Of a stretch of DNA of 64,000 nt, positions 1-47,692 are shown one piece after another; positions within the stretch are counted from its first letter, which is position 1, and every line of letters begins with the position of its first letter. Origin of the DNA: an uncultured virus (IMG/VR IMGVR_UViG_3300025327_000016) (lineage: Duplodnaviria; Heunggongvirae; Uroviricota; Caudoviricetes); the IMG/VR virus record IMGVR_UViG_3300025327_000016, positions 1 to 64,000 of that record; one strand, 5' to 3'. The notes below the pieces were generated by a model that was not told the DNA's origin, did not search any database, and saw nothing but the letters and a program-made list of their open reading frames with translations. Made by a program: the position numbers and the translations under genes.

Positions 1-640
1 AGCATTACTAACAGCACGACGAACAGCATTACCAATAGCACCACCAACAGCATCACCAACAGTACTATCAACAACATCACTAACAACATCACTAACAGCA
101 CCACGAACAGCATTATCAACAGCATTACGAACAGCTCTACGAACAGCATCATCAACAGCTATCCCAACAGCATTAAAAACAGCACTACCAACAGCATTAT
201 CAACAGCACTACCAACAGCCCTACCAACAGCATTACCAACAGCATTAAAAACAGCACTACCAACAGCATTATCAACAGCTATCCCAACAGCACTACTAAC
301 AGCATTATCAACAGCATTACCAACAGCATTACCAACAGCATCACCAACAGTACTACTAACAGCATCATCAACAGCTATCCCAACAGCATTACCAACAGCA
401 TTACTAACAGCACGACGAACAGCATTACCAATAGCACCACCAACAGCATCACCAACAGTACTATCAACAACATCACTAACAACATCACTAACAGCACCAC
501 GAACAGCATTATCAACAGCATTATCAACAGCATTACGAACAGCTCTACGAACAGCATTATCAACAGCTATCCCAACAGCACTACTAACAGCATCATCAAC
601 AGCACTACCAACAGCACTACTAACAGCATCATCAACAGCA
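1..640. repeat. ~50 tandem copies of a 12-bp unit AACAGCNNNNNN, with a higher-order duplication (1-127 = 397-523)
   Basis: Read directly from sequence. Confidence 0.95.
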
Positions 641-708
641 CTATAATACACAATACCTAATTCGTCTGTTCCTGAACCCGTAGGCCCCTTATATGGTTCA
701 GATAGCAT
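1..708 (-). CDS. Tetrapeptide-repeat (xxAV) protein, 3' end runs off the window; not in the ORF track
   Basis: SD AAGGAGGTG 7 nt before ATG at 708; reads MLSEPYKGPTGSGTDELGIVYYSAVDDAVSSAVGSAVDDAV... with no stop to base 1. Confidence 0.8.
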   Translation of the reverse strand, partial: MLSEPYKGPTGSGTDELGIVYYSAVDDAVSSAVGSAVDDAVSSAVGIAVDNAVRRAVRNAVDNAVDNAVRGAVSDVVSDVVDSTVGDAVGGAIGNAVRRAVSNAVGNAVGIAVDDAVSSTVGDAVGNAVGNAVDNAVSSAVGIAVDNAVGSAVFNAVGNAVGRAVGSAVDNAVGSAVFNAVGIAVDDAVRRAVRNAVDNAVRGAVSDVVSDVVDSTVGDAVGGAIGNAVRRAVSNA

Positions 709-2426: not shown

Positions 2427-2463
2427 GTAGAAAAATGAGACCTGATTAATAAGGGATTGAAAC
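2427..2463 (+). CRISPR. Solitary CRISPR-repeat-like unit 1 (not an array)
   Basis: GTAGAAAAATGAGACCTGATTAATAAGGGATTGAAAC, 37 bp, starts GT and ends ATTGAAAC, intergenic. Confidence 0.75.
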
Positions 2464-2468
2464 TTAAT

Positions 2469-2651
2469 TTATTCATTGATACCCTTCCCTTCTTTTTCAG
2501 AAATGTTTATAGACGAGAGAACTGGAGATATTGAAGAAGATTCAAATACTCTATCAGAGTATTCAAGAGCAATACTTTCTGCAGATGAAAAATTATTTGC
2601 TTTTACCGTAAATGTTACAGGATAAACTATTGTAACTTCATATAAATTCAT
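2469..2651 (-). CDS. Hypothetical protein (60 aa, MNLYEVTIVYP...)
   Basis: Internal ATG of the tracked 127 aa ORF avoids overlap with the upstream gene. Confidence 0.55.
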   Translation of the reverse strand: MNLYEVTIVYPVTFTVKANNFSSAESIALEYSDRVFESSSISPVLSSINISEKEGKGINE

Positions 2652-2655
2652 TGTT

Positions 2656-2877
2656 TTACCACATATCCTTTCTTTTTGTGCGCTCCTGTTCGAGCGCACC
2701 AACCACCTTATTAAACTTATCTTCGGCTGGAAGCCGAAGATGATCAAACCTTTCCTCCAACATCCCCTGTTCTTCAGGGGATAATACATACCCCTGAGCG
2801 AGCTTCTGATGGAGCTCGTGACGAACGATCTCCTCTTCGGAGACCGTTTCAAAATATCTAATTTTGCTTTTTATCAT
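2656..2877 (-). CDS. Hypothetical protein (73 aa, MIKSKIRYF...)
   Basis: SD GGAGGTG before ATG at 2877. Confidence 0.65.
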   Translation of the reverse strand: MIKSKIRYFETVSEEEIVRHELHQKLAQGYVLSPEEQGMLEERFDHLRLPAEDKFNKVVGALEQERTKRKDMW

Positions 2878-2881
2878 ACTT

Positions 2882-3259
2882 CTACACCTCCCTAAATTGA
2901 ATAAATTTAAAGATGGCGGTCTTTTCGACCGTACCATCCGTCAATATTTTCTCTACCGCCTCGCGGCGGGAGGTAGATACTACTACTTTATACCCTAACT
3001 CTTTACACATATGAGTTAAAGTATAAAATAACGATTGTTCCCCCATTACATGGAGGATTACTTGAGAGGGGGATAACCCCTTAATATCAAGGATCTCTCC
3101 TATCTGATACATCATATCCATAGCTAACTTACTAATCCCCTCCTTGTCTAAGGAGGGGTCAACTTGCGGAAACGGCATATCTAATATATCCCCTTTTACC
3201 CCTTCTCTTTGTTCTATTGACCATTTCCCATATGGGTGGTTGCTGATATTAATAAACAT
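2882..3259 (-). CDS. Csx20/Csx15-like CARF-related protein, putative cyclic-oligoadenylate ring nuclease
   Basis: Start reassigned to MFINISNHP (SD GAAAGGAAG); motifs NxSNHP..W..EQ, D.PFP.VDP, HVMGE, STS.R, F.F.QFRE recalled from CRISPR-associated Csx20-like proteins. Confidence 0.7.
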   Translation of the reverse strand: MFINISNHPYGKWSIEQREGVKGDILDMPFPQVDPSLDKEGISKLAMDMMYQIGEILDIKGLSPSQVILHVMGEQSLFYTLTHMCKELGYKVVVSTSRREAVEKILTDGTVEKTAIFKFIQFREV

Positions 3260-3453
3260 ATTTACACTTCCTTTCTTTATCCATAATATCCACCTAAACA
3301 ATACAAACTTAGGTGGTCTTACCAAGATACATAACAGGATGCTTGCACACCGTATGCAAAACACCCTGTCATCCACAGACTTATCTTCCCCACGAACAGA
3401 AAAGGGCAGGTGGTAGATATCCTACCCGCCCACTCTCATCTTCCGTAGAAAAA

Positions 3454-3490
3454 GTAGAAAAATGAGACCTGATCAGTAAGGGATTGAAAC
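3454..3490 (+). CRISPR. Solitary CRISPR-repeat-like unit 2 (not an array)
   Basis: GTAGAAAAATGAGACCTGATCAGTAAGGGATTGAAAC, 35/37 identical to unit 1, intergenic. Confidence 0.75.
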
Positions 3491-3521
3491 TTTACGCCTT
3501 CTTTCTTTTTTTTTTTGAATT

Positions 3522-3551
3522 AAAAAAAGCCGAGGGCTAATGCCCTCGGCT
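3522..3551 (-). terminator. Intrinsic terminator
   Basis: 10-bp stem AGCCGAGGGC/GCCCTCGGCT followed by a T run on the - strand. Confidence 0.75.
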
Positions 3552-3560
3552 AAATCAAGC

Positions 3561-3926
3561 CTAGAAACTAGGCTTGATTTTTCCAGGAGCCTTTTTAGGC
3601 TCCTGGAGGAGCTCACTCACGCGAGCTCCTCCGTACCGTCCAAACTGGACGGTGTAGAGTTTGAACTCTTCACCGTCCTTTATTGTAATCCACGGGGACG
3701 GGTTCCCCGTGTCCCTGGGACCAAGTCCGATCCCAGTCCAGACGCACGCATCTGGGCTGAGATCAAAGATCTCAGCCAGCTCTCCTGTAATAATTACAGG
3801 AGAGCTTACGCTCCCTTTCTCAGCATTAAATCTTTCTATTAGCTCGCCCAAAGGGCGAGCCAATAAACCCTTAGCGAGCCCGATAAGGCTCGCTTCTTTT
3901 TTCCCTTTAACTTCTATAAAGCTCAT
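3561..3926 (-). CDS. Hypothetical protein (hairpin-tiled CDS)
   Basis: 121 aa ORF, SD AAGGAGGT, terminator downstream. Confidence 0.7.
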   Translation of the reverse strand: MSFIEVKGKKEASLIGLAKGLLARPLGELIERFNAEKGSVSSPVIITGELAEIFDLSPDACVWTGIGLGPRDTGNPSPWITIKDGEEFKLYTVQFGRYGGARVSELLQEPKKAPGKIKPSF

Positions 3927-3929
3927 TTT

Positions 3930-4101
3930 TTTACCTCCTTTTGGCAGCAGCTAGATGCCTGCTGCCTTGGATATTGTAGGTGCACATGGGGCAGACAAGG
4001 AACTGAATTGTCAAGATACGCTGTTTGTCTTGACAATGTCTGCCCCATGTGCTTTGCTTTTTAAGGCAGCAGGCAGCTGCTGACTAAAAGAAAGAGGTAA
4101 A
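3930..4101 (-). promoter_or_regulatory. Long nested stem-loop whose base pairs with the SD of the 3561-3926 gene
   Basis: Nested inverted repeats 3930-3937/4094-4101, GCCTGCTGCCTT/AAGGCAGCAGGC, 3982-3997/4037-4052, 4007-4016/4028-4037. Confidence 0.6.
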
Positions 4102-4803
4102 GAGATGAGGAGAAGTAAGGGGAAGAAAGAGGCATGAGACAGAGGGAAGCTAAAGAGGGGGGCTCGAGGAGGCGAGTTGATGGTGGCACCTCCCCTCCCT
4201 CTTTTAGGTGTTGTAGCTGGAGAGCAGAGGGGGTTTAGCCCCTCTGGTCGGGACACTATTATTACAACATCAAGGTTAGTGGGGGGGAATAGTATCCTCA
4301 TGTATAGGCTATCAACTTATACTATAAGGTTAAGTTGGATAGGGAAGAGGGGCCGAAGGCCCCTGATGGGAGCACTAAGAGGTTCTTTAAGGGTTATATA
4401 TGAGGCATAAAATAACTCCCTATATAAGCCTTGAAAGAAAACCCTGGATTAAAGCCATTTGTTTTTGAGAGATGAGTACCAATAAGGTGGTTTTTAAGAA
4501 TGGCTCTACCATTGACTTGAGACTACCTCAGCTACAGGGAACGACATCTAAAGGACAGGCAAAAAATGGCTCTGCTACGTGGTCAAAAACTGGCGTGGCT
4601 ATTGGATGTGGTTTTTCAAACGGATGTTGTATTATCAACGTTGGGCGCCGAAGGCGTAGTAGATAAGGGTAGGTTGGAATAGGAATAGACAAGGGGAGCC
4701 GAAGGCTTGAGGTAAGAGGAAGTAGGGAGGGGGGTGCGAAGCACCCCTGTTGGGAGGAAAAAGGGGAGCGGTAGAGCTAAACAAGCCTCTACCGCTCCGA
4801 AGA

Positions 4804-4983
4804 CTACGAGTAATCCTCGTAGTCGTCTTCCAGGGGGCAGGCTATTACCCACCCCCAATCGTATGCACAATCAACGCATACGCCCATCTCCTGACAAGAT
4901 GTCAGGAGACCTACTTCTCCACATACAGTGCAGAAGTCTATATCATCAACTTCCACCATAGAAGTTGATGATAATATTCTCAT
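4804..4983 (-). CDS. Small Cys-rich protein (59 aa); not in the ORF track
   Basis: SD GAAAGGAGGTG; MRILSSTSMVEVDDIDFCTVCGEVGLLTSCQEMGVCVDCAYDW... Confidence 0.65.
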   Translation of the reverse strand: MRILSSTSMVEVDDIDFCTVCGEVGLLTSCQEMGVCVDCAYDWGWVIACPLEDDYEDYS

Positions 4984-4999
4984 ATTTCACCTCCTTTCT

Positions 5000-5218
5000 T
5001 TAGTTGTTTGTTGAGACGTGACTTAGATACCATATCCAGTCACATCTTATTAGGGCTCCATCATACAATCTGGGCAAATAAAGTGCCCAGATTGCTTTCA
5101 GGATACAACCCTTTATTACTTCAGGGTTGTATCCTAGATCACTAACCCATTCTGGGTTAGTGATAAACATCATTCGTGCGCTGTACTGACAGCGCACGAA
5201 CTTAAACAAGTATTCCAT
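5000..5218 (-). CDS. Hypothetical protein
   Basis: 72 aa, SD AAAGGAGG. Confidence 0.65.
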   Translation of the reverse strand: MEYLFKFVRCQYSARMMFITNPEWVSDLGYNPEVIKGCILKAIWALYLPRLYDGALIRCDWIWYLSHVSTNN

Positions 5219-5246
5219 TAATATCCCTCCTTTCTAATCTAGCAAG

Positions 5247-5450
5247 CTACCGCTTGCTGCATATATCAACAACAAACCCTGCTCCTCCTAATAGGAGGAG
5301 TACTACAAGCACTCCTCCCAACCATGGGAGCAGCACACAAGCTGCTCCCACCAACCCCACCCATAAGAGGGTGGTACCAATTAGGTTGTCCTTCTTTCGA
5401 AGGAACCAACCTAGTACTGCTATAAAAATACAAATTAACAACCTTAACAT
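5247..5450 (-). CDS. Small membrane protein, resembles 2144-2386
   Basis: Hydrophobic 67 aa, SD GAGGTG. Confidence 0.65.
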   Translation of the reverse strand: MLRLLICIFIAVLGWFLRKKDNLIGTTLLWVGLVGAACVLLPWLGGVLVVLLLLGGAGFVVDICSKR

Positions 5451-5520
5451 ATTTACTCACCTCTCTTTCTCGTGACCATTATTTAACGAGGCGGTCACTA
5501 CCTCGTAAGCTCAGTCCTAA

Positions 5521-5685
5521 CTATCCCTCCTTTCGCGCGATGTACTCATCGTACATCGCGTTGATATCCTCGTCCGTAAGAACGAGGTCTTCCGACCAGG
5601 ACTCATAGTCCTGGTCTACCTGCTGGAGGCAGCCCCAGCAAGGGGCTGCCTCCAGGTACAACTCATCAATCAGGTCCCTGATCAT
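5521..5685 (-). CDS. Small acidic protein (54 aa, MIRDLIDELY...)
   Basis: SD AAAGGAGGTG before ATG at 5685. Confidence 0.65.
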   Translation of the reverse strand: MIRDLIDELYLEAAPCWGCLQQVDQDYESWSEDLVLTDEDINAMYDEYIARKEG

Positions 5686-5849
5686 TTGCTCACCTCCTTT
5701 CGAAGGCGAACAGCTTCTGAAAGCTGCTCGCGATGATATCGCGAGCGTAACTCCCAGACATACTCTGGGAGCTTGTCCAAAAGCCCCCAGACTAACTCGG
5801 GTTCCCAACCCGAGTATCTCTTTTCGATCCAACTTTCAAAACTCATCAT
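5682..5849 (-). CDS. Hypothetical protein (MMSFESWIEKRY...)
   Basis: ATGA overlap with the next gene; SD-like GTAGGT. Confidence 0.55.
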   Translation of the reverse strand: MMSFESWIEKRYSGWEPELVWGLLDKLPEYVWELRSRYHREQLSEAVRLRKEVSK

Positions 5850-5906
5850 ATAATACCTACTTTCTGCCGCTGTTAAGCGGCGTAATGTCACCCACTTGGT
5901 GGGTGC

Positions 5907-5946
5907 AAAAAAGGGGAAGGGAGAGCTTGTAAGCTCTCCCTTCCCC
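5907..5946 (-). terminator. Intrinsic terminator
   Basis: 15-bp stem GGGGAAGGGAGAGCT/AGCTCTCCCTTCCCC plus T6 on the - strand. Confidence 0.75.
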
Positions 5947-5956
5947 CCAACTTACT

Positions 5957-6193
5957 TTACTCAGAGACCTCGGCGTAGAATGCGCCGAGATCCTCCTTCC
6001 CCTTTATTACAACATTAACGCACTGGCCGAGGTTACTGTGAATGTAAAAACTCGTGCATTCAATCTTTTCAGCTGCGCACGCTGCGCAGCTGGACGGGTA
6101 GGCATAGCCTACCCATCCAGTGAACCCCGCGGGCGGGTTCTGACACCATTCCATGATGGCGTCGTAAAGCTCTCTACCTTTACAAATACTCAT
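5957..6193 (-). CDS. Hypothetical protein
   Basis: 78 aa, SD GAAAGGAG. Confidence 0.65.
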   Translation of the reverse strand: MSICKGRELYDAIMEWCQNPPAGFTGWVGYAYPSSCAACAAEKIECTSFYIHSNLGQCVNVVIKGKEDLGAFYAEVSE

Positions 6194-6313
6194 ATTATAC
6201 TCCTTTCATCTACAGCCTGCCTCACGGTCAGGTCTTACATAGACCTCATCATCGGTGTCGCAAGCCACCTCCCACCTACACCCCGTGGTTGGGGTTAAGC
6301 CCGCAACCATAGA

Positions 6314-6388
6314 TTACTCTATGGTTGCGAACTCAGCGTTCAGTATCGCCCAACAATAGGCGACACAAATCCAAAGTTCAAATATCAT
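6314..6388 (-). CDS. Putative 24 aa hydrophobic peptide MIFELWICVAYCWAILNAEFATIE
   Basis: Strong SD GAAAGGAGGTG with the same leader as the 4983 gene. Confidence 0.4.
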   Translation of the reverse strand: MIFELWICVAYCWAILNAEFATIE

Positions 6389-6718
6389 ATATTTCACCTC
6401 CTTTCAGCCACATAGTTCACAGGGGGGGGTGGGGCACCAAACGATAAATCCCCTGTGATATTATCTGCATTACCACCCACACACACATACACTCACCCTA
6501 ACGGGGTTACCTGCTCGCACCACAAGCAAATAAATGAGCCTAGAACACATCGTAGGGGAAGGGGTGGGTACTGGAAGCTAGGGGTAATTACCCCTAGCTT
6601 TAAGAAGCCTTCTAAAATTTTTAGTGGAACCTTCTCTTATTTAGCTTTCGCCAGGGCTTTAACAGCTTTTATATCTAACAAGAGGTATATATCATGAATA
6701 TTCCAAGAAATAGTAACC

Positions 6719-7009: not shown

Positions 7010-7229
7010 AAGTAATAAATATAATGATTTACCTAATAAGGTATCGCCGTTCCTAACGGCGGTGGATAAGGTATTTATTACCGAAGGTAGATTTGAAGTA
7101 GGTAGCATAAATAATCCTATTAGGCACATCTTTGATACCAGTAATGATGCTGTAGCTTACGCTGAGAAATTTCAACCAGGTACGATGACTATTCTAGATC
7201 GATGGACAAATAGTTCTTGGATAGTATAA
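6969..7229 (+). CDS. Hypothetical protein
   Basis: 86 aa ORF coupled to neighbours. Confidence 0.55.
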   Translation: MSKGVHLMIVPNIRSNKYNDLPNKVSPFLTAVDKVFITEGRFEVGSINNPIRHIFDTSNDAVAYAEKFQPGTMTILDRWTNSSWIV

Positions 7230-7617: not shown

Positions 7618-7648
7618 TTGACAAAAAGATCAATATATGTTATATATT
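7618..7648 (+). promoter_or_regulatory. Sigma70/sigmaA-like promoter upstream of the packaging operon
   Basis: TTGACA, 17 bp, TATATA with a TG extension (TATATT at 19 bp). Confidence 0.5.
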
Positions 7649-7875
7649 AATTCTTTTATATAATATATATAACATCACTGTCAGTAATATTATAATACAG
7701 AGAACTACTAAAAGTAGTTCTCTTATAAGATATTACTGTATGTAATATTACATACAGAGATCTCTGTCAGTAATAAGCAATCCATTAAGGTTGCGGAAAA
7801 ACCATATACAGTATATAATTAGTTAGCACCTAATAACCTATGGATCTAATGCATCAATTAAACGGAGATATTGTA

Positions 7876-8544
7876 ATGCGAAGAAATTATCGTAAGCCAA
7901 ATATAGAATCATTAGTTAAGAATAATAGGGAGCTTCCAGCTCCTCCTCCTGGATGGAAATTTCCTCGAGAGTGGAATTTAGATCAACGTAAGGTTGATGC
8001 TATAACAGTAGAACTTCAACAACGACGTAGTACTCATGGTATGTTTGCTAATGTACCCATGTTATGTAATGGCGAGCAATGTCCTTTTGCTCTTATATGT
8101 GGTGCGTGGCAGGCACAAGAGGCACACATAGGTGACAGGTGTGTGCCTGAGATAGCATTGGTTATGACCAATACAGATAGGTATCTCCGTGAGTTTGGTA
8201 TAGATCCAAATAAGGACGACCACTTTGCCGACTTCACGTTAGTGAAGGAGTTAGTAGCTATAGAGGTTATGATCGAGCGATGCGAGAAGAGATTATCTCT
8301 TGAATATGAAGTAGTGGATGTTCCTGTTCTAGCTACGAAGAACAGTGAGGTTTACACTAAGAAAGAAGTTAATGCATCACTAGATATTCGCGATAAGCAT
8401 ATGCGCCGTAGACATGAAATCCTTAGGCTATTACAAGCTACGAGAGCTGATAAGAAGCAACTATCAGGTAATACAGGTGCTGAGGTAGCTGATCGGTTGC
8501 TTACCCTTGATGCTGAAGTTACTGATATTCGAAAGGATGATTAG
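7876..8544 (+). CDS. Putative terminase small subunit / Zn-binding packaging protein
   Basis: First gene of the late operon near terL; Cys cluster and helical C-terminus; SD GGAG favours the 7876 start. Confidence 0.5.
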   Translation: MRRNYRKPNIESLVKNNRELPAPPPGWKFPREWNLDQRKVDAITVELQQRRSTHGMFANVPMLCNGEQCPFALICGAWQAQEAHIGDRCVPEIALVMTNTDRYLREFGIDPNKDDHFADFTLVKELVAIEVMIERCEKRLSLEYEVVDVPVLATKNSEVYTKKEVNASLDIRDKHMRRRHEILRLLQATRADKKQLSGNTGAEVADRLLTLDAEVTDIRKDD

Positions 8545-9873: not shown

Positions 9874-11589
9874 ATGGGTATAGATATAACTCGTTTTACT
9901 CCAGAACAACGCAGTAGGTATATAGAAGTTCTTAAGACCTTTCCTCTCTTCGCAAAAGAATTTTTCGATAAAACTCTTCGTGATTGGCAACAAACAGTTG
10001 TTGCAACAAATGCTAAACGTTTTGCGTTACGCGTAGCACGTCGTGGTGGTAAAACCGAATTAGTATGTATGATGGTTTTATGGTTATGTTTTACTAATGG
10101 TAAGGTCATAGATCCTACCCGCAAGCAACGATACAAAGTTATTGTGATGGCTCCACTAGAAACCCATCTTAATGATATTTATCAGAATATGCTAACACTC
10201 ATAAATACCTCTAAAGATTTTCAAGAGAGTATAGAGAAGCCCGCTAAAGCACCTGCATTTTTGCGTTTTAAAAACGGTGCTGTTATACAATTCTTAACAG
10301 CAGGTACCAAGTCGGGAATGGCAGCCATGGGTATTCGTGGTAAGTGGGGTGATTTAATATGGGTAGAAGAAGCAGACTATTGTACGGATGATGACATGAC
10401 ATCAGCTTTAGCTATCTTGGGTCAATCAGATGACATTAGGTTTATAATGACATCTACTCCATCAGGTAAAAGAGGTATATACTACGAGACATGTGTTGAT
10501 CCAGAACCCAGAGGCTTCAAATCATTTCACTATAATTGCTGGGAAGCAATACCAGATTGGAATGAAGAACGTGATAGGCAGATACGTATGCTCATTGGGC
10601 CAGTTAGGTATGAACATGAACAACTAGCTGATTTTGGTTCTGAATCATTTGCGGTATTTAAGAAAGAAAAAATAGATACTGCTAAAAATCGCGATACACC
10701 ATGGTATACTCATTCTCCCAAATCTCATCCTAATTATGGGTATCTTATGTCTAAGCTTTATAGCAAAGAACATCCTATCGTAATAGGAGTAGATTGGGAT
10801 AAGTATCATGCTGCTACTCAGATAGTTGTTGTGCAGTTTGAAAGATATGATGATAAAGACTATTATATGCGCGTAATAGCAAGACATGAAATACCAATAG
10901 GAGAATATACCCTACATAACGCTACTAAGAAAATAGTTATGCTTAATGATTTCTATCAACCAGATTATATCTATTGTGATCGTGGTTATGGAGAAGGTCA
11001 GATAGAAAACTTAAAAGTAGTTGGTTTGGAGAATCCAGAAACCAAACTTCACGATAAAGTAATTGGTGTACATTTTGGACAGTCAGTAGATATTCTAGAT
11101 CCGCATACTAGGGTAAGATCATCAACGCCAATCAAACCACTAATGGTAAATAGATTAACTCAGATGTTTGATGACGAAGTACTTATACTAAGTCCTCATG
11201 ATCACTTCATGACCCTAGAGTTAAACGAATATCGAGTTAAGCGTATGAGCCAAAATGGACAACCCATTTTCTCTTCTAAGAACGAACATGCCATAGACGC
11301 TCTTATGTTAGCAGTATATGGTATTACCGAACACTTTTTAAATATGGGCAAGGTAGAATCTTATGCTGAGATGCAGCCTATTAGCAATATCTTAAAGCGC
11401 GTACCTGAAAACAAAACCTCACCATTACAAAAACGCAACACCAATATAGATTATGAGCCCCCTCCGCCTGGGTTTATACCATCCAATCAGTATGGATTGC
11501 GAGGAGGGGGATTCGACAGCTTTAATCCTACAGTATCTAGATTTGGTGGTTCAGGTATAAGACGTAGAAGTTTTACGCGAGGTAGCTAA
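9874..11589 (+). CDS. terL: Terminase large subunit
   Basis: Walker A RVARRGGKT, Walker B LIWVEEAD, coupling motif TSTP, nuclease IGVDWD and HAIDAL. Confidence 0.92.
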   Translation: MGIDITRFTPEQRSRYIEVLKTFPLFAKEFFDKTLRDWQQTVVATNAKRFALRVARRGGKTELVCMMVLWLCFTNGKVIDPTRKQRYKVIVMAPLETHLNDIYQNMLTLINTSKDFQESIEKPAKAPAFLRFKNGAVIQFLTAGTKSGMAAMGIRGKWGDLIWVEEADYCTDDDMTSALAILGQSDDIRFIMTSTPSGKRGIYYETCVDPEPRGFKSFHYNCWEAIPDWNEERDRQIRMLIGPVRYEHEQLADFGSESFAVFKKEKIDTAKNRDTPWYTHSPKSHPNYGYLMSKLYSKEHPIVIGVDWDKYHAATQIVVVQFERYDDKDYYMRVIARHEIPIGEYTLHNATKKIVMLNDFYQPDYIYCDRGYGEGQIENLKVVGLENPETKLHDKVIGVHFGQSVDILDPHTRVRSSTPIKPLMVNRLTQMFDDEVLILSPHDHFMTLELNEYRVKRMSQNGQPIFSSKNEHAIDALMLAVYGITEHFLNMGKVESYAEMQPISNILKRVPENKTSPLQKRNTNIDYEPPPPGFIPSNQYGLRGGGFDSFNPTVSRFGGSGIRRRSFTRGS

Positions 11590-12878
11590 TGAATGACTTT
11601 AAGAGTAATGATGAGGAATTATTAGGTTTTGCTCCTGATATTACATATCATCCACCACCAGCTATACGTGACGGTGAAACTTTAGGTGAGCGTGAGCAAG
11701 CAGCAGAATTACCTCTTGTATTTATTCCAACTGTTCAAGAGATTATTTACCTAAAGGATGCTGTTAAGGACACGGCTGGAATCTTAGATGAACAATTGAA
11801 TGATATAGAATTATCTCTTGCTCACTTCTCAATTAATATATCTGAGTTAGATCTTACAGACGAAGATCTAACTTACCTACAAGGAATTAGTTCTCTAACC
11901 ATACAAGACCTAAAGAATTATTATCTTACTAGAACACAACCACTATCTCAAACCATAGTAAATACTTTCCAAAAAGGGGCTTCTGACATTACAGGCAATA
12001 TAGATGCTGAGATATATGCAGATCTATTTGGCATACGAAATATAGAACTATATGTATATGCAAATGCAGTAAGTGGAATCATTACTCTTTTACAAAGCGA
12101 TCTATTAAGCAATACAAATGATTTAGATAGATACCATAGTACTCAATTACCTCCAGGCATAGCCGACTATGTAAACGTAATGCGCGATGGTATGGATAAG
12201 CTAGCTATAGCAATATCTAATTACATAGCCCTTCGTAAGAAGGCGGTAGTAAGACAACAGATTGCTAATATGACTACTCCTATATTACAATCAATTAAAG
12301 ATAGTCCTAAGTCAATCTCAAGTTTTATACAAGGTATTAGTCAACTTATGGGTATAATCACATTAGCTAATGATATTAAGCGCTCAAGTGAACCAATAGG
12401 GGACAGCAATATTCAAAGAGTAGTTGGTACAGTAGGTAATCTAGAGATAGATCCTAAGATGGCTCTCGGGATATCTTTTTTGGGTGATAAGATAAAGAAA
12501 CCTGGCGCATCTTTCTTAACAGACTTATTGAATTTAGCTCCACCTAACCAAGATTTTAATATGATGGCTTCTCAAATTACTTCATCAGCCAGAGTAGTAC
12601 ATCAATACCAAACAGAGAAAATGATAAATATGGCTAGGTTATTTGCTCTTAAAAATCAATTATTTGACAATCGCTATGATTTCCTGCATGATAAGGATAG
12701 TAAAAGATTAATGCATGGAGCTTTAGATTCTATTAATACTAAACTTAAGGGTTTAAAAAATAAAGATTTCAACATGTCTAATACAGTTAAAGACATATTA
12801 TCTTCATTTGGCAATAAGTTATTTGGTGAACAAAAAAGAGTATTTCAGTCTAGTCCTTTTCCACGGCTTATGGATTAA
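11589..12878 (+). CDS. Hypothetical helical protein
   Basis: 429 aa, coupled to terL. Confidence 0.75.
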   Translation: MNDFKSNDEELLGFAPDITYHPPPAIRDGETLGEREQAAELPLVFIPTVQEIIYLKDAVKDTAGILDEQLNDIELSLAHFSINISELDLTDEDLTYLQGISSLTIQDLKNYYLTRTQPLSQTIVNTFQKGASDITGNIDAEIYADLFGIRNIELYVYANAVSGIITLLQSDLLSNTNDLDRYHSTQLPPGIADYVNVMRDGMDKLAIAISNYIALRKKAVVRQQIANMTTPILQSIKDSPKSISSFIQGISQLMGIITLANDIKRSSEPIGDSNIQRVVGTVGNLEIDPKMALGISFLGDKIKKPGASFLTDLLNLAPPNQDFNMMASQITSSARVVHQYQTEKMINMARLFALKNQLFDNRYDFLHDKDSKRLMHGALDSINTKLKGLKNKDFNMSNTVKDILSSFGNKLFGEQKRVFQSSPFPRLMD

Positions 12879-12909
12879 CTATCTAGAAACTACTTTAAAA
12901 GGAGTTACT

Positions 12910-13956
12910 ATGACAATGTCAGCGCCATCACCTAACTCTCTACCATTCCTAAATACAATTTATGATGCAAATAAATTCTATGGCGACCTAAGAAGCCAAG
13001 TCAATAATCACATATTTGGACAAAACAATGCAATAGATGTTGTTCTACAGACCTTTAAAAGATATTTAGTTGGATTAAACGAACCCAACAAACCCATAGG
13101 TGCTTTTTTATTTGTTGGTCCTACAGGTTCAGGCAAGTCACAAACTGCAAAGGTATTAGCGGAACATGCATTTGGAAAAGAAGGACTTATTAAAATAGAC
13201 TGTTCTGAATATGCTCAAGAATTTATGGCTACTAGATTAATAGGTGCTCCTCCTGGCTATATTGGACACGAAAATGGTTCAGTATTAATACGTATGATGC
13301 AACAACGTAAGGATAAGGGTACTATAATTCTCTTTGATGAAGTAGAAAAAGCACACCCTACTTTCTTTGATTTATTTCTTCAGATACTAGATGAAGCTGT
13401 TCTTACAGATGGTTCGGGCACCCAAGCAGACTTCTCTAAATCAATAATAATTATGACATCCAATATTGGCTCTAAAAACTATAGCAACAATCAAACACTT
13501 GGATTTAGAAACAATAATCGCATAGTTGATATAGAGAAATCAGTTAATAAAGAAATAAAGGCATTACTTAGACCAGAACTAATTAATAGACTAACAGCTA
13601 TGCTTTATTTTAAACCATTAACTGAAGTGGAGATCAAACTTATATTAGGCAAGTATTTTAAAGAACTAAATAAAAAACTTCAACGACTAGAGATTAAACT
13701 AGAACCTAGTGATGAAGTTATAGAACATCTAATTAAAATAGGATTTAATCCAGAATATAATGCAAGAGAATTGTATCGAGTATTTACTAGATACATAATT
13801 AACCCTATGTCAGATATTATTCTGGCTGGAGATCTTAAAAGTGATAGTCTAGTATTAATAAAATTATCACCTTCAACCATAGGATCTTCTCCTAAATTGC
13901 TATTAAAACGGATAGGTTCATACCCATTATTAGATGATGGGGAAGAAGAGGTATAA
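12910..13956 (+). CDS. Stand-alone ClpA/ClpB-type AAA+ (D2) ATPase
   Basis: FLFVGPTGSGKS, IDCSEY, RLIGAPPGYIG, LFDEVEKAHP, IMTSNIGS, RPELINRL; SD AAAGGAG before 12910. Confidence 0.9.
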   Translation: MTMSAPSPNSLPFLNTIYDANKFYGDLRSQVNNHIFGQNNAIDVVLQTFKRYLVGLNEPNKPIGAFLFVGPTGSGKSQTAKVLAEHAFGKEGLIKIDCSEYAQEFMATRLIGAPPGYIGHENGSVLIRMMQQRKDKGTIILFDEVEKAHPTFFDLFLQILDEAVLTDGSGTQADFSKSIIIMTSNIGSKNYSNNQTLGFRNNNRIVDIEKSVNKEIKALLRPELINRLTAMLYFKPLTEVEIKLILGKYFKELNKKLQRLEIKLEPSDEVIEHLIKIGFNPEYNARELYRVFTRYIINPMSDIILAGDLKSDSLVLIKLSPSTIGSSPKLLLKRIGSYPLLDDGEEEV

Positions 13957-43963: not shown

Positions 43964-46900
43964 ATGGCATTTGGACCCTTTCCAATTAATCACGGAGAAG
44001 AGAGCGCAAGAGAATCTCTTCACATAGCTAGGTCAGTTAGTAATCCTGCGTGGAGCGAGCATCTTCACAACCAAACCACTAGATCTAGTAATCTTATACT
44101 AGATCCATTTACAGGAGAGAATATTCTTATTGCTCCTCTTACTAATCAGACCTACACAACACACAAAGAAATCCAACGAGCACTATCTACCTCATTAAGC
44201 ACACCATCCTATTTTGGACAGTATCTCCATACACCACATAATGTAAGCATTAGATCTAAGATCAGTAAAATGATTAGTTTGGGTCATATAGGTGGTACAG
44301 GTGGTCCACAATTACCAACTATTAGATTTACCGCTTCTGCTTATCACGAAGGATTAACTGGTCTTCCTGTAAAGACATCACTACCAACTATTATACCTCC
44401 TTCTGGTTCTTGGCAAACACAGCTAGAAAACATGACTAGAACTGAAAAATGGAAGCTATGGCAAGACGTAACAGGTGCAATGCCTAGTGGAGGATATACA
44501 CTAGATCAAATTAAACAACTTCAGGCAAATCTTTTTCACCGAGAATTATCTGTTCAGGAATTCTTGCAAGCATATCAACAAATAGAAAAGACATCTACCA
44601 AAGATGTAGTCATAAAAACTAAGCAATTACTTAAGGCTTCTTTTGGTGCTAATATATCCTTACCTAATACTATCAAAGATATATATACTATGGAACAACA
44701 TATCTTTGAGAAAATCTTACCCTCTTTTGGAGAAGAAGTACAGGAAACTCTTAAGGGGTACCGTACAGTAGTGACTGGTTCTAGTAAGGCGCGTATGGCC
44801 TGGGAGATACACGAGCGTCCTCTTAAGATGATGGGTTCGTGGTTAGCTCAGTTTACATCTTCTCCTAAGGTAGATCGTAACTTATTGGCTCAAACAAGTA
44901 ATATAATAGAAGCTGGTGCAAAAAGAGATTTAACACAAGAATTGGCTTCTGCTAATGTGATGTCTCGTGAAAAGATGGAGGCAATGGATGTCTTACGACC
45001 CCTTTCTCAACGAGAAAGGGAAATACAATCTGGTATGGGAACAGTTTTTCAGTTTAGTCCTAAGTCCATATCTCCTCTTGCAGAAACAGCCCTACCCACA
45101 CAACTATCAGAAGCTGATGTATTTGGAACAGCATTCGAGTCCTACATGCGTCAGACACACCCACAAGCAATATATTCCTATCAGAAATTTAGACACTCTG
45201 AAGACATATTAAAACTAGTTAAGGGTCATACTGCTGAGGTTGCGGAGTTTGATGAATTTCGTAAAGTAATACAGAAAATTGCAACTCGTGCTGCTACGCA
45301 AGCACCAGGATATAGATCTAAAGCATATCTCAAGCTAGCAAAATCTACTACATTAGATTTTGCTCAACAAATGGCAGCATGGCAGGATTATATAAGATCT
45401 GGTATGTCAGAAATAGAAACAGTATCTGAGTTTGGTGCTAAAGCATCGCAAGCATCTAAAGAGTTAGCCAACATAGAGCAACTAATACAACAACATCGCG
45501 AAGCTGGTGAGCTATATGGCACACCTAAAATGCAAGCTCTTTTTGAACAGCGTGAAGATATAGCTAAGCAATTTGTAGGGCATGAGAGAATATTAGCTAG
45601 TGGTAAATCACCCAAAGACATTGTAAATTTACCCAGTCAACCTACAAACCCTCTTGAATCCTATGCTAAACCTTTTGTTGGGCCAATGCCTCAACAAGTA
45701 TTACAGCCTAAGTCAGTTCAATACAAGCGTATTACTACAGCTAAGGGGTTACAAGAATTCCTTAAGAGTCTACCATCATCTGGTCATATTGCATTAGATA
45801 CAGAAACAACAGCATTTTCTGAAGCAATAGAGAGAGTTAGATTGCTTCAGCTTTCAGCTGAGGGCGGACCTGTTGGTATTGTAGATCTCCTTAAACTACC
45901 TAAAAAGGGTAGATCTATTTTAACTGAGTTCCTCGCTAGTTCTAGACCTAAAATAATACAAAATGCTCCATTTGATATCAAAGCTTTATTAGGCGAAGGA
46001 TATAAAATCGGTGGGCAGATATACGATCCTATGGTGGCAGAGCAGGTTCTTAGTCAAACTAAGTATGGTAAATCTAACCTAGGATATCTTGCGTCTAAAT
46101 ATTTAAACATTTCCTTGCCTAAAGAAGCACAAAAATCTAAGTGGGGTGGTAGGCTATCAAAACAACGATACCAGTATGCAGCCAGAGACGTAGCCGTACT
46201 ACATGATATAATGAGTGCTCAGTCTGCAGCATTTGAACAGGTGGGTATAGAGCAATACAATATAGCTGCGAAGCAGATGACTAGTATACAGCAAAGAGCT
46301 AGAGAAAAGTTTATTACAACAACACATCTAAAATCTACAATAAAATCCACAACACCAATAATACCAACACCAACAGTAGCACCATCAGCACGACGAACAG
46401 CACCATCAACAGCATTACCAACAGCATTATCAACAGCACTACGAACAGCATTACCAACAGCACCATCAACAGCACCAATAATACCAACAACACCAATAAC
46501 AACAACACCAATAACAGCAATACCAACAGGTCCTCAAGCTACTGCAATACCTTCACCGTCTAGAGCCCAGAATATTATGGACGTTCTTACGAGTGAGCCA
46601 GGTCGTAGAAAGATCTTATCGGCAGGTGCTTCACTTGAAGCAGGTCCATGGGCAGCCATACCTGAGAAGTCTGCAGAACTTATGCGCCAGAATCAAGAGA
46701 AGCTATATGCTCTTAGTCGTGGAGTAGGATACTATGCTAAAGTAAAACCCCTTGGGGAAACTGGAGGTATGCATGAGTTAATCCTACAGTCTATGGAAAC
46801 CCACGGAGCTAAGTTTAAAATGGTAGGTACAGCAGAAGAGCTAAATGAGAAACTGCGTTCTGCTCAAGCCCAGGCATTTGTAGAAGGTATAGCTCCTGAA

Positions 46901-47692
46901 TCAGCTATAGAAGAAGTTAAAGCAAAAACTATTATTAGTGAAGCAGATTTATGGAGACGTAGATTAGATAGAGGTATTCAGCATGGCGCAGAACAAGGTG
47001 TAATAGAAAGCCACTATCAACAAACAAGTTCTCTAATAGGTAATCTAACAGAACAATACGCTCATCTACCTATGTCAGAAAGATTACGCCAGATACGTTC
47101 TGGAGCTAAGCTACAAGATCTTATGGGTAGCTTCACTGCTGCAGCTGATATCACAGAAGAAGTTGCTGGTAGTGTAGGGGCTCATGCAGCCTCTGGAGTA
47201 GCTGAGGCTGCTGAAACAATTCGTCCTAAGCCAGGAAAAGCTATTGATATGATAGAGAATGCTTTTATGCGCTTACCTCGTTCCGCGCGATGGGGATTAG
47301 GTGGTTTAGCTACAGCTGTCGTAGGTGCGGGATTACTTTCTTCTTCACTACAACTAGGTCAACGTGAACTCAAACCAGATATGATAGCACCTGGTCCAGA
47401 CATGACACCTATGCCCGATGGTTCTTACACACCTCCAGCTAGTCCATCAGTAGGTGGCACAACACGTATTATGGATGAGACAGTACCAGGTAAGGGAGGT
47501 AATGCGTATAAAGTGCGCATTAGGGCCCGCGACAGAGGAGATATAGACCCCGATCAACTACATCAATTGGTTGGTCAATCACTATCTCAAGTTCAAATGC
47601 CAACCAATATTCATATCACATCACAAGATCACCGCAAGAAAATCAAAGAAACAGTTGAAGATGAATTACTACATCTACTTCATAAAAGGTAA
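43964..47692 (+). CDS. Large tape-measure-region protein with a DEDDy 3'-5' exonuclease domain and a T/A/P repeat linker
   Basis: IALDTET, QNAPFD, YAARD at ~45785-46210; C-terminal TM segment. Confidence 0.75.
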   Translation: MAFGPFPINHGEESARESLHIARSVSNPAWSEHLHNQTTRSSNLILDPFTGENILIAPLTNQTYTTHKEIQRALSTSLSTPSYFGQYLHTPHNVSIRSKISKMISLGHIGGTGGPQLPTIRFTASAYHEGLTGLPVKTSLPTIIPPSGSWQTQLENMTRTEKWKLWQDVTGAMPSGGYTLDQIKQLQANLFHRELSVQEFLQAYQQIEKTSTKDVVIKTKQLLKASFGANISLPNTIKDIYTMEQHIFEKILPSFGEEVQETLKGYRTVVTGSSKARMAWEIHERPLKMMGSWLAQFTSSPKVDRNLLAQTSNIIEAGAKRDLTQELASANVMSREKMEAMDVLRPLSQREREIQSGMGTVFQFSPKSISPLAETALPTQLSEADVFGTAFESYMRQTHPQAIYSYQKFRHSEDILKLVKGHTAEVAEFDEFRKVIQKIATRAATQAPGYRSKAYLKLAKSTTLDFAQQMAAWQDYIRSGMSEIETVSEFGAKASQASKELANIEQLIQQHREAGELYGTPKMQALFEQREDIAKQFVGHERILASGKSPKDIVNLPSQPTNPLESYAKPFVGPMPQQVLQPKSVQYKRITTAKGLQEFLKSLPSSGHIALDTETTAFSEAIERVRLLQLSAEGGPVGIVDLLKLPKKGRSILTEFLASSRPKIIQNAPFDIKALLGEGYKIGGQIYDPMVAEQVLSQTKYGKSNLGYLASKYLNISLPKEAQKSKWGGRLSKQRYQYAARDVAVLHDIMSAQSAAFEQVGIEQYNIAAKQMTSIQQRAREKFITTTHLKSTIKSTTPIIPTPTVAPSARRTAPSTALPTALSTALRTALPTAPSTAPIIPTTPITTTPITAIPTGPQATAIPSPSRAQNIMDVLTSEPGRRKILSAGASLEAGPWAAIPEKSAELMRQNQEKLYALSRGVGYYAKVKPLGETGGMHELILQSMETHGAKFKMVGTAEELNEKLRSAQAQAFVEGIAPESAIEEVKAKTIISEADLWRRRLDRGIQHGAEQGVIESHYQQTSSLIGNLTEQYAHLPMSERLRQIRSGAKLQDLMGSFTAAADITEEVAGSVGAHAASGVAEAAETIRPKPGKAIDMIENAFMRLPRSARWGLGGLATAVVGAGLLSSSLQLGQRELKPDMIAPGPDMTPMPDGSYTPPASPSVGGTTRIMDETVPGKGGNAYKVRIRARDRGDIDPDQLHQLVGQSLSQVQMPTNIHITSQDHRKKIKETVEDELLHLLHKR
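46345..46528 (+). repeat. Low-complexity tract including AACAGC 12-mer repeats (TALP/TAPS)
   Basis: Same unit as 1-640. Confidence 0.85.

Follow-up and report, generated by a model that had tools for sequence, protein, structure and literature searches.

Why should some 4 kb of a phage genome be tiled with short inverted repeats, in which molecule would they fold, and what would the virus gain from it? The question is raised by a region in a 64,000-nucleotide (nt) stretch of DNA (the window), which is the first 64 kb of the 99,839-bp record IMGVR_UViG_3300025327_000016 of an uncultured tailed virus. The virus is most likely a large myovirus, and the region, called the hairpin block here, is most likely the promoter-proximal start of its early arm. 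Computation shows many short, unrelated hairpins, formed partly through synonymous GC-rich codons, whose folding is on the coding strand and leaves most ribosome-binding sites open. That this structure shields the earliest anti-defense transcripts from RNA-targeting immunity, meaning type III CRISPR recognition and single-strand RNases, is the reading we favor, and we give it about even weight for and against.

A sequence-only reading of the window had described dozens of palindromes within about 3.7 kb, and all five that it quoted lie where it placed them. Stems of at least 7 bp number 48 in 2650–6620 (12.1 per kb) versus 157 outside (1.71 per kb). Perfect stems of at least 8 bp, with loops of at most 12 nt, occur at 5, 14, 6, 14, and 5 per kb over 2–7 kb; every other kilobase of the 99.8-kb record, the structural operon included, holds 0–4, in line with the earlier impression that the structural operon lacked such tiling. 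The region is also GC-richer, as had been noticed, with a GC content of 0.44–0.48 over 3–7 kb versus mostly 0.30–0.42 in the rest of the window, and GC content at third codon positions (GC3) is 0.45–0.76 in the block versus 0.15–0.33. When folding energies were compared with dinucleotide shuffles, 19 of 20 200-nt intervals of 2601–6600 had z values of −2 or lower on the minus strand (lowest, −13), as did 1 of 10 in 601–2600, and in the remaining genome all 76 2-kb bins had mean z values between −1.7 and +0.7. Folding in the block thus equals neither that of its shuffled controls nor that of the rest of the genome. The proposed extent, 2670 to 6400, can be refined. Tiling is present there, but the region reaches about 6620 and consists of three blocks, the middle one of which (4030–4800) folds better on the plus strand, and a weaker second cluster lies further along the same arm. 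No stem or loop sequence is shared among the stems, and therefore it is shape, not motif, that recurs. The loops have no overall GNRA, UUCG, or GNA consensus; 3-nt loops are enriched (15 of 48 stems in the block versus 14 of 157 outside, p = 5e-4), and a codon-register test of the stems was flat (p = 0.3–0.4). Because the sequence is found again in four other assemblies and on three metagenome contigs, with a homopolymer length as the sole difference, the tiling is not an artifact of a single assembly.

Four tests indicate that the block behaves as messenger RNA (mRNA) structure. First, in a within-gene synonymous permutation, all 10 open reading frames (ORFs) counted in the block, nine of which have clear Shine-Dalgarno (SD) sites (5891–5682 is doubtful), fold better than their permuted versions (z of −2.3 to −10.2), versus none of the next seven ORFs and none of eight late genes. 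Second, G-U pairs in confident helices favor the ORF strand by 43:9 (p = 3e-4, for an expected share of 0.59), whereas control regions have them evenly on both strands; in 4020–4800, which is ORF-poor and purine-rich on plus, the bias flips to 7:1 on plus (p = 0.11). A model-free count of wobbles gave 8:1 in the window alone (p = 0.07) and 20:1, 21:2, 29:4, 16:4, 13:2, 9:0, 13:3, 8:1, and 5:1 in nine relatives. Since a sparse coding-strand bias (2–5 pairs per 6.5–10 kb, probably terminators) occurs in unfolded genomes too, this measure marks RNA folding and not tiling as such. Third, strong pairing covers 0.43 of ORF bodies and 0.29 of intergenic parts versus 0.07 of translation starts, and seven of nine starts lack any strong pair (p = 3e-4 versus random positions); accessibility was judged by strong-pair counts, summed unpaired probabilities being unreliable (one value was negative). 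Fourth, the core of a 266-nt inverted duplication in the block, a palindrome at 4007–4037 with TTGACA on both strands, has a second copy about 7 kb further on, beyond the window start (a 33-nt palindrome with a near-identical loop, L040:898–934, upstream of a gene with a strong SD site). This promoter-like copy is followed by the second folded cluster, which is AT-rich and lies 7–11 kb further along the arm; there, four of six genes tested are folded, with no gain in GC.

The sequence-only reading had offered transiently single-stranded DNA and structured early mRNA as alternatives, and these results favor the latter. The former, in which duplication of a terminal repeat, entry, or an origin exposes single strands that the hairpins protect or on which they serve as promoters, seems unlikely. 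It would accommodate the near-perfect stems and the enrichment of 3-nt loops, and at the equivalent position Bacillus phage 0305phi8-36 has a 6.5-kb terminal repeat (6,479 bp, with minus-strand ORFs), a comparison by which a terminal position of the block is plausible; that repeat, however, is itself unfolded. A step in read depth near 4300–4500 in one run (X11; 10.6 versus 16.6) can be explained by GC bias, and the records are classed as linear without end repeats, with one depth value per contig. Moreover, the favored strand follows gene direction and apparently flips in 4030–4800 (weakly, p = 0.11), translation starts are spared, and the second cluster is 7–11 kb away. Tailed phages, furthermore, inject double-stranded DNA. 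A parallel would be the leading regions of plasmids and their Frpo promoters (PMC13478746). The block resembles them in being a GC-rich, first-expressed region with anti-defense cargo, and early genes are preceded by a long hairpin (3880–4145), the stem of which contains TTGACA. It differs in that the phage is double-stranded, folding tracks the mRNA strand, and no good −10 box was found 16–18 nt downstream of the stem TTGACA, the only candidate being a 9/12 match inside the palindrome. In addition, the accessible part of the same source describes plasmid leading regions as lacking a general excess of hairpins.

If RNA is the folding molecule, the stems could still reflect mutation instead of selection. 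Template switching perfects quasi-palindromes, and in heavily transcribed DNA it may be a source of the stems, with strand-biased C-to-T decay mimicking G-U wobbles. Such a by-product would show stems that are long and perfect and loops of minimal size, would lack shared sequence and codon-register bias, and would turn over fast, all of which holds here. As the full explanation we nevertheless regard it as quite improbable. The raised GC3, the open ribosome sites, and the fact that a conserved enzyme gene is itself folded indicate selection, and in the two closest pairs of relatives, paired positions diverge less than unpaired ones (0.117 versus 0.187 and 0.120 versus 0.152), unlike in late controls. 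The compensatory changes expected in homologs were found in part: between alignable relatives, one-sided changes keep pairing in 114 of 278 cases versus 91 expected (p = 0.002), whereas the late-gene control gave 150 of 454 versus 146 expected. Shuffles, synonymous permutation, and pair retention thus agree in supporting selection for folding, as the earlier reading had proposed, although selection on pairing is modest and the hairpins turn over fast.

The position of the block bears on what this selection might serve. Near-identical assemblies extend the record by about 65 kb on one side and about 10 kb on the other, and nearly all long ORFs of these extensions are on the minus strand of the window. 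Downstream of the terminase, long head and tail ORFs (roles read from their translations) follow on the plus strand. The block is at the very start of the long minus-strand arm, which diverges from this late operon near 6600, and by this layout its genes would be among the first transcripts made.

Among the genes of the block, a 125-amino-acid (aa) ORF is likely a Csx20-like ring nuclease candidate, an enzyme that would degrade cyclic tetra-adenylate (cA4), judging by its sequence and structure model. It matches NCBIfam NF040559 with an expectation value (E) of 4e-10 and 40 bits, below the equivalog cut-off of 70, and also PF27247; Atlas gives 0.93 to CRISPR-associated MJ1673-family clusters. 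At E of at most 0.001 it matches 1,589 representatives, and 424 at E of at most 1e-10, the latter mostly full length. Seven invariant and nine near-invariant columns of a 93-row alignment of its own matches are kept, including N7, H8, E74, R99, and R123. The model of the protein has a predicted local distance difference test (pLDDT) score of 97.7. SAVED/CARF entries lead its VIA matches with middling scores, the best being SAVED-CHAT (Z of 8.0, root mean square deviation of 2.8, 101 aligned), and Foldseek gave weak matches only, to Csm6, Cam1, and Sso2081 (E of 0.004–0.03). Csx20 degrades cA4 and is present in 4 of 28,114 phage genomes (PMC12409355); the annotated phage collection that we searched gave no Csx20 match. 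With Csx20 and the viral ring-nuclease anti-CRISPR AcrIII-1/Crn2 (PMC12409355), the candidate shares a full-length Csx20-like sequence, the family residues, a perhaps CARF/SAVED-like fold, and a phage genome; it differs in its score below the family cut-off, in being recoded into hairpins, and in being bracketed by repeats. Another virus (L154:9–1527 and 4001–4360) has a Csx20-like gene near ORFs that by eye resemble type IV CRISPR subunits, together with two tRNAs.

The bracketing repeats are two solitary CRISPR repeats of 37 nt, 1,027 nt apart. No further copies and no spacer array were found in the rest of the phage DNA examined. The repeats end in an 8-nt tag, the nearest repeats from multi-copy arrays differ from them at 6–8 of 38 letters compared, and against Rfam CRISPR-DR8 they score 29 and 25 bits, below the gathering score of 39. 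A relaxed repeat pattern retrieved 18 distinct loci in prokaryotic genomes, many of which are arrays. Among 54 proteins scanned from 11 loci of this repeat family, type III-A or III-D effector genes were found at four (L023, L034, L035, and L037) and Cas1, Cas6, or CARF genes at others; one further locus of the family has a Csx20-like gene. In a search for a host with the same repeat, the genome contig collection gave no exact match, and none of 477 genomes in four phyla carries the repeat within three mismatches. A set of 218 spacers from repeat-family arrays gave no phage match beyond two short partial ones. One of the repeats closest to those of the phage belongs to a type III-A locus in a record labeled Promethearchaeota (L023:1292–8066), and at another locus (L028:8909–9817) a group II intron-type reverse transcriptase lies directly beside an array of the family.

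The CRISPR RNA (crRNA) sense of the repeats is on the plus strand and the ORFs are on the minus strand, and therefore early mRNA would carry the repeats in antisense. They could be RNA anti-CRISPR (Racr) decoys, could inhibit as antisense RNAs, or could be left over from the capture of a host locus. They resemble the known RNA anti-CRISPRs, or solitary repeat units (PMC10651486), in being single viral repeats outside an array and less than 1 kb from a likely anti-CRISPR gene. The differences are that two copies flank a 1-kb cassette, that the crRNA sense is opposite to the ORFs, and that promoter matches are at chance level. In the accessible part of that source, RNA anti-CRISPR tests are reported for types I-C, I-E, I-F, and V-A, and not for type III.

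Taken together, the cargo of the early transcripts would be a cA4 ring nuclease of the Csx20-like kind, the two solitary repeats with their type III-like sequence, and small orphan proteins, and the presence of the first two lends weight to the earlier suggestion that structured early mRNA resists RNA-guided targeting, a purpose that we infer. In the reading that we favor, the mRNA of the early arm would have been selected to fold along most of its length. Folding in the cell would then act in several ways. Type III crRNA guides would pair more slowly with the earliest transcripts, and cA4-activated or other RNases would find little single-stranded RNA. Folding would thereby buy time, with fewer early transcripts recognized or cut until ring nuclease and decoys, if active, accumulate. 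Three layers would thus oppose one RNA-sensing system: the target is hidden, the guide machinery is jammed, and the alarm is erased. The cost of opening a 32-nt target has a median of 13–14 kcal/mol in the block; GC-matched shuffles give 10, and other genes about 7. Type III spacers are reported to favor genes just downstream of early phage promoters, with escape by point mutation being hard (PMC13575424), and target structure cut type III-B activation up to 100-fold in vitro (PMC8682760).

A number of observations weigh against shielding from immunity. Around 22% of 32-nt targets in the block are cheap to open, and type III-A adaptation is described as preferring hairpin-forming DNA, which would be a cost (PMC8860593). 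A looser codon-resampling null puts four of eight late genes at z of −2 or lower; by another metric, the open starts are weak against composition-matched windows (p = 0.09), and they are absent in two of four relatives. The both-sided part of the expected compensation is not significant (29 of 53 versus 23 expected, p = 0.07). The early timing of the block transcripts is deduced from position only. The repeats are antisense to the ORFs, and plus-strand promoter matches are weak and at chance level. Csx20 loci of viruses other than this phage were examined in two cases; the first is unfolded, and in the second a tRNA makes the result ambiguous. Finally, neither Csx20 nor a repeat-like sequence turned up in the folded arms of relatives, and none of their 56 scanned ORFs matches an anti-CRISPR family in Pfam.

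Most of all, the RNA evidence is explained just as well by a role in transcription or general stability, the main rival, although we consider it somewhat doubtful. Rho loads on unstructured C-rich RNA, and tiled hairpins could deny it access, reduce backtracking and R-loops, or shield transcripts from housekeeping or phage shut-off RNases, with anti-CRISPR cargo present only because early regions collect such genes. Every RNA-level result fits, including the folding of intergenic parts (0.29 strongly paired); the folded arms of relatives are without detected anti-type III cargo; and folding is missing from the whole clade of G010, G011, G012, and G018 and from 0305phi8-36, as host physiology could cause. 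Unpaired positions are C-poor (0.12 versus 0.29 for paired ones), as evasion of Rho would have it, but this follows trivially from G-C stems. Less easily accommodated are the genes with small ORFs directly downstream on the same strand, which are unfolded (zero of seven), and the fact that two independent anti-type III parts are present in the very case in which tiling is most perfect.

The stems might, alternatively, be conventional processing or regulatory elements, such as terminators, RNase III sites, repetitive extragenic palindromic (REP) or attC-like repeats, or a known structured RNA. The block has one good terminator (3528–3551), and some stems of relatives are terminator-like (G007), but terminator-like sites in total number 9 versus 5.4 ± 2.4 by chance, most stems lie inside ORFs and have no common sequence, and none of 16 Rfam matches reaches the gathering score. 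We regard this explanation as very improbable.

Relatives of the phage were examined as well. An alignment of 25 terminases led to 529 viral matches, of which 80 were kept, and the arm upstream of a marker gene was traced by stem count (21 relatives) and by folding z (19 relatives). Scans for close relatives covering the block yielded nothing beyond the same phage and a fragment that begins at the marker gene. Of the 19 relatives profiled, all of them distant, 8 have a folded arm at the same map position, spanning at least three deep lineages of the terminase large subunit (TerL). Among the 13 relatives profiled finely, 8 contain a stretch of 3 kb whose mean z is at or below −2; of six profiled coarsely, five have no kilobase at −2, and the sixth is cut off where the signal begins. 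Small folded ORFs follow the strand switch in G005 (seven of seven, z of −3 to −7), G020, G021, and G022; in G023 and G016 the number of called ORFs is smaller. The coding-strand wobble bias is significant in eight of nine arms tested. On the terminase tree, with folding groups assigned by hand from z profiles and long branches leaving the deep order unsure, strong folding maps to three deep lineages (this phage, the clade with G016 and G020–G023, and G005) and weak folding mostly to a fourth; the clade of G010, G011, G012, and G018 and phage 0305phi8-36 have none. Near-perfect tiling at the density seen here is matched by G005 alone among the 21. The arms of 0305phi8-36 and Moorella phage MTATph1 share the map, with small minus-strand ORFs diverging from the terminase operon, but the former is unfolded (zero of seven ORFs) and the latter has patches only (5 of 18 ORFs). 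In G019 (L144), folding z drops very low, to −5.1, in the last kilobase of the arm, where the end bin is incomplete.

We propose tentatively that a widespread group of large myoviruses uses a protein-free form of anti-defense, in which the earliest mRNAs are recoded into tiled hairpins against type III surveillance and RNases, accompanied in this phage by a ring nuclease and by repeats perhaps antisense to pre-crRNA. Eukaryotic RNA viruses have genome-scale ordered RNA structure that has been proposed to blunt innate sensing. The likeness lies in motif-free structure running through coding sequence; in this double-stranded DNA phage, such structure is limited to the genes near the promoter. 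Solitary repeats are a known kind of element, as are phage ring nucleases. For hairpin-tiled coding sequence at the head of an early arm, recurring across a phage group, we found no such precedent: a literature search, with subscription journals mostly outside its coverage, returned no description of hairpin-tiled phage early genes. If the proposal is correct, coding-strand folding would be a sequence-only marker for early anti-defense islands, and an anti-CRISPR route would be encoded in codon choice and not in a gene. Even if Rho or stability were the cause, the folding would be a genome signature in several deep phage lineages that points to orphan anti-defense genes, and the cassette supplies candidates for type III RNA anti-CRISPRs and for a phage Csx20.

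Features of the hairpin block and its surroundings (window coordinates)
Feature	Position	Strand	Remarks
Solitary CRISPR repeat 1, 37 nt	2427–2463	+	2 differences from repeat 2
ORF, 73 aa	2656–2877	−	Last of the folded genes in the block
Hairpin-tiled region	2678–6620		About 48 unrelated stems of 7–16 bp, both within ORFs and in the gaps separating them
Csx20-like ring nuclease candidate, 125 aa	2882–3259	−	Gene itself folded, z −2.8
Solitary CRISPR repeat 2, 37 nt	3454–3490	+	crRNA sense on plus, antisense to ORFs
Intrinsic-terminator-like hairpin	3528–3551	−	After 121-aa ORF
121-aa ORF	3561–3926	−	Most folded gene, z −10 versus synonymous shuffles
Imperfect inverted duplication, 266 nt	3880–4145		DNA hairpin −65 kcal/mol, z −10; candidate divergent early promoter or operator
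Block B, plus strand rich in purines	4030–4800	+	Four GC-rich hairpins with GAA loops; no convincing ORF
Block A, start of minus-strand arm	4800–6450	−	Small ORFs with strong SD sites; wobbles on minus, G-U 27/341 versus 5/320 pairs
Acidic ORF, 59 aa	4804–4983	−	Two CxxC motifs; no family
ORF, 72 aa	5000–5218	−	No family
Hydrophobic ORF, 67 aa	5247–5450	−	No family
Acidic ORF, 54 aa	5521–5685	−	No family; candidate anti-defense protein
Cys-rich ORF, 78 aa	5957–6193	−	No family
First ORF of the arm, 24 aa	6314–6388	−	10-nt SD match; no family
Perfect loopless 26-bp palindrome	6575–6600		At divergence point; candidate operator or end signal
Positional marker, conserved Cys-containing late-arm gene	7840–8544	+	Small terminase by position only
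Terminase large subunit	9874–11589	+	TerL identity 35.7% to Moorella phage MTATph1, 29.5% to Bacillus phage 0305phi8-36

Apart from the Csx20-like gene, the ORFs of the block are orphans, with no family match in scans that included Pfam and PHROG, and the marker gene likewise has no Pfam or PHROG match. No relatives of the 121-aa ORF were found; its variant proteins P0001 and P0003, which differ over a hairpin, are likely read errors and were not used. The inverted duplication (4105–4137 on plus versus 3926–3890 on minus) copies the SD site and first codons of this gene, and the resulting mirror ORF on the plus strand has 10 codons. Short non-coding pieces at 4293–4323, 4490–4529, 6426–6445, and 7070–7101 are common to a related phage (runs X11, X17, and X18), the intervening sequence being different, and are candidate cis signals or a genome end.

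Several further features lie outside the block. No tRNA was found in the phage DNA scanned. At 7630–7770, directly after a TTGACA-17-TATATT match and ahead of the late operon, AT-rich nested palindromes (z of −8 to −12), including a perfect one of 22 bp, form a candidate late promoter/operator, origin, or packaging site. A tract of 12-nt tandem repeats at 1–708 (minus), where the record breaks, is completed in L040:11–877 and is open on both strands, as AVxN-type on minus and TNSI-type on plus; similar tracts occur at L040:1575–2849 and at 46345–46529 of the window, inside a DUF6745 gene and a long late-arm gene. An 80-aa membrane-type ORF (2232–2353) has a 78% identical paralogue at L042:15204–15325. 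In the late arm, a protein of 1242 aa with a low-complexity repeat (43964–47692) appears, judging by a sequence motif, to include a 3'-5' exonuclease-like segment. By their sequences, a ClpB-like AAA+ ATPase (12808–13956) lies between terminase and portal, and a cluster of glycosyltransferase-like genes occupies 75598–82237 of G000, also in the late arm.

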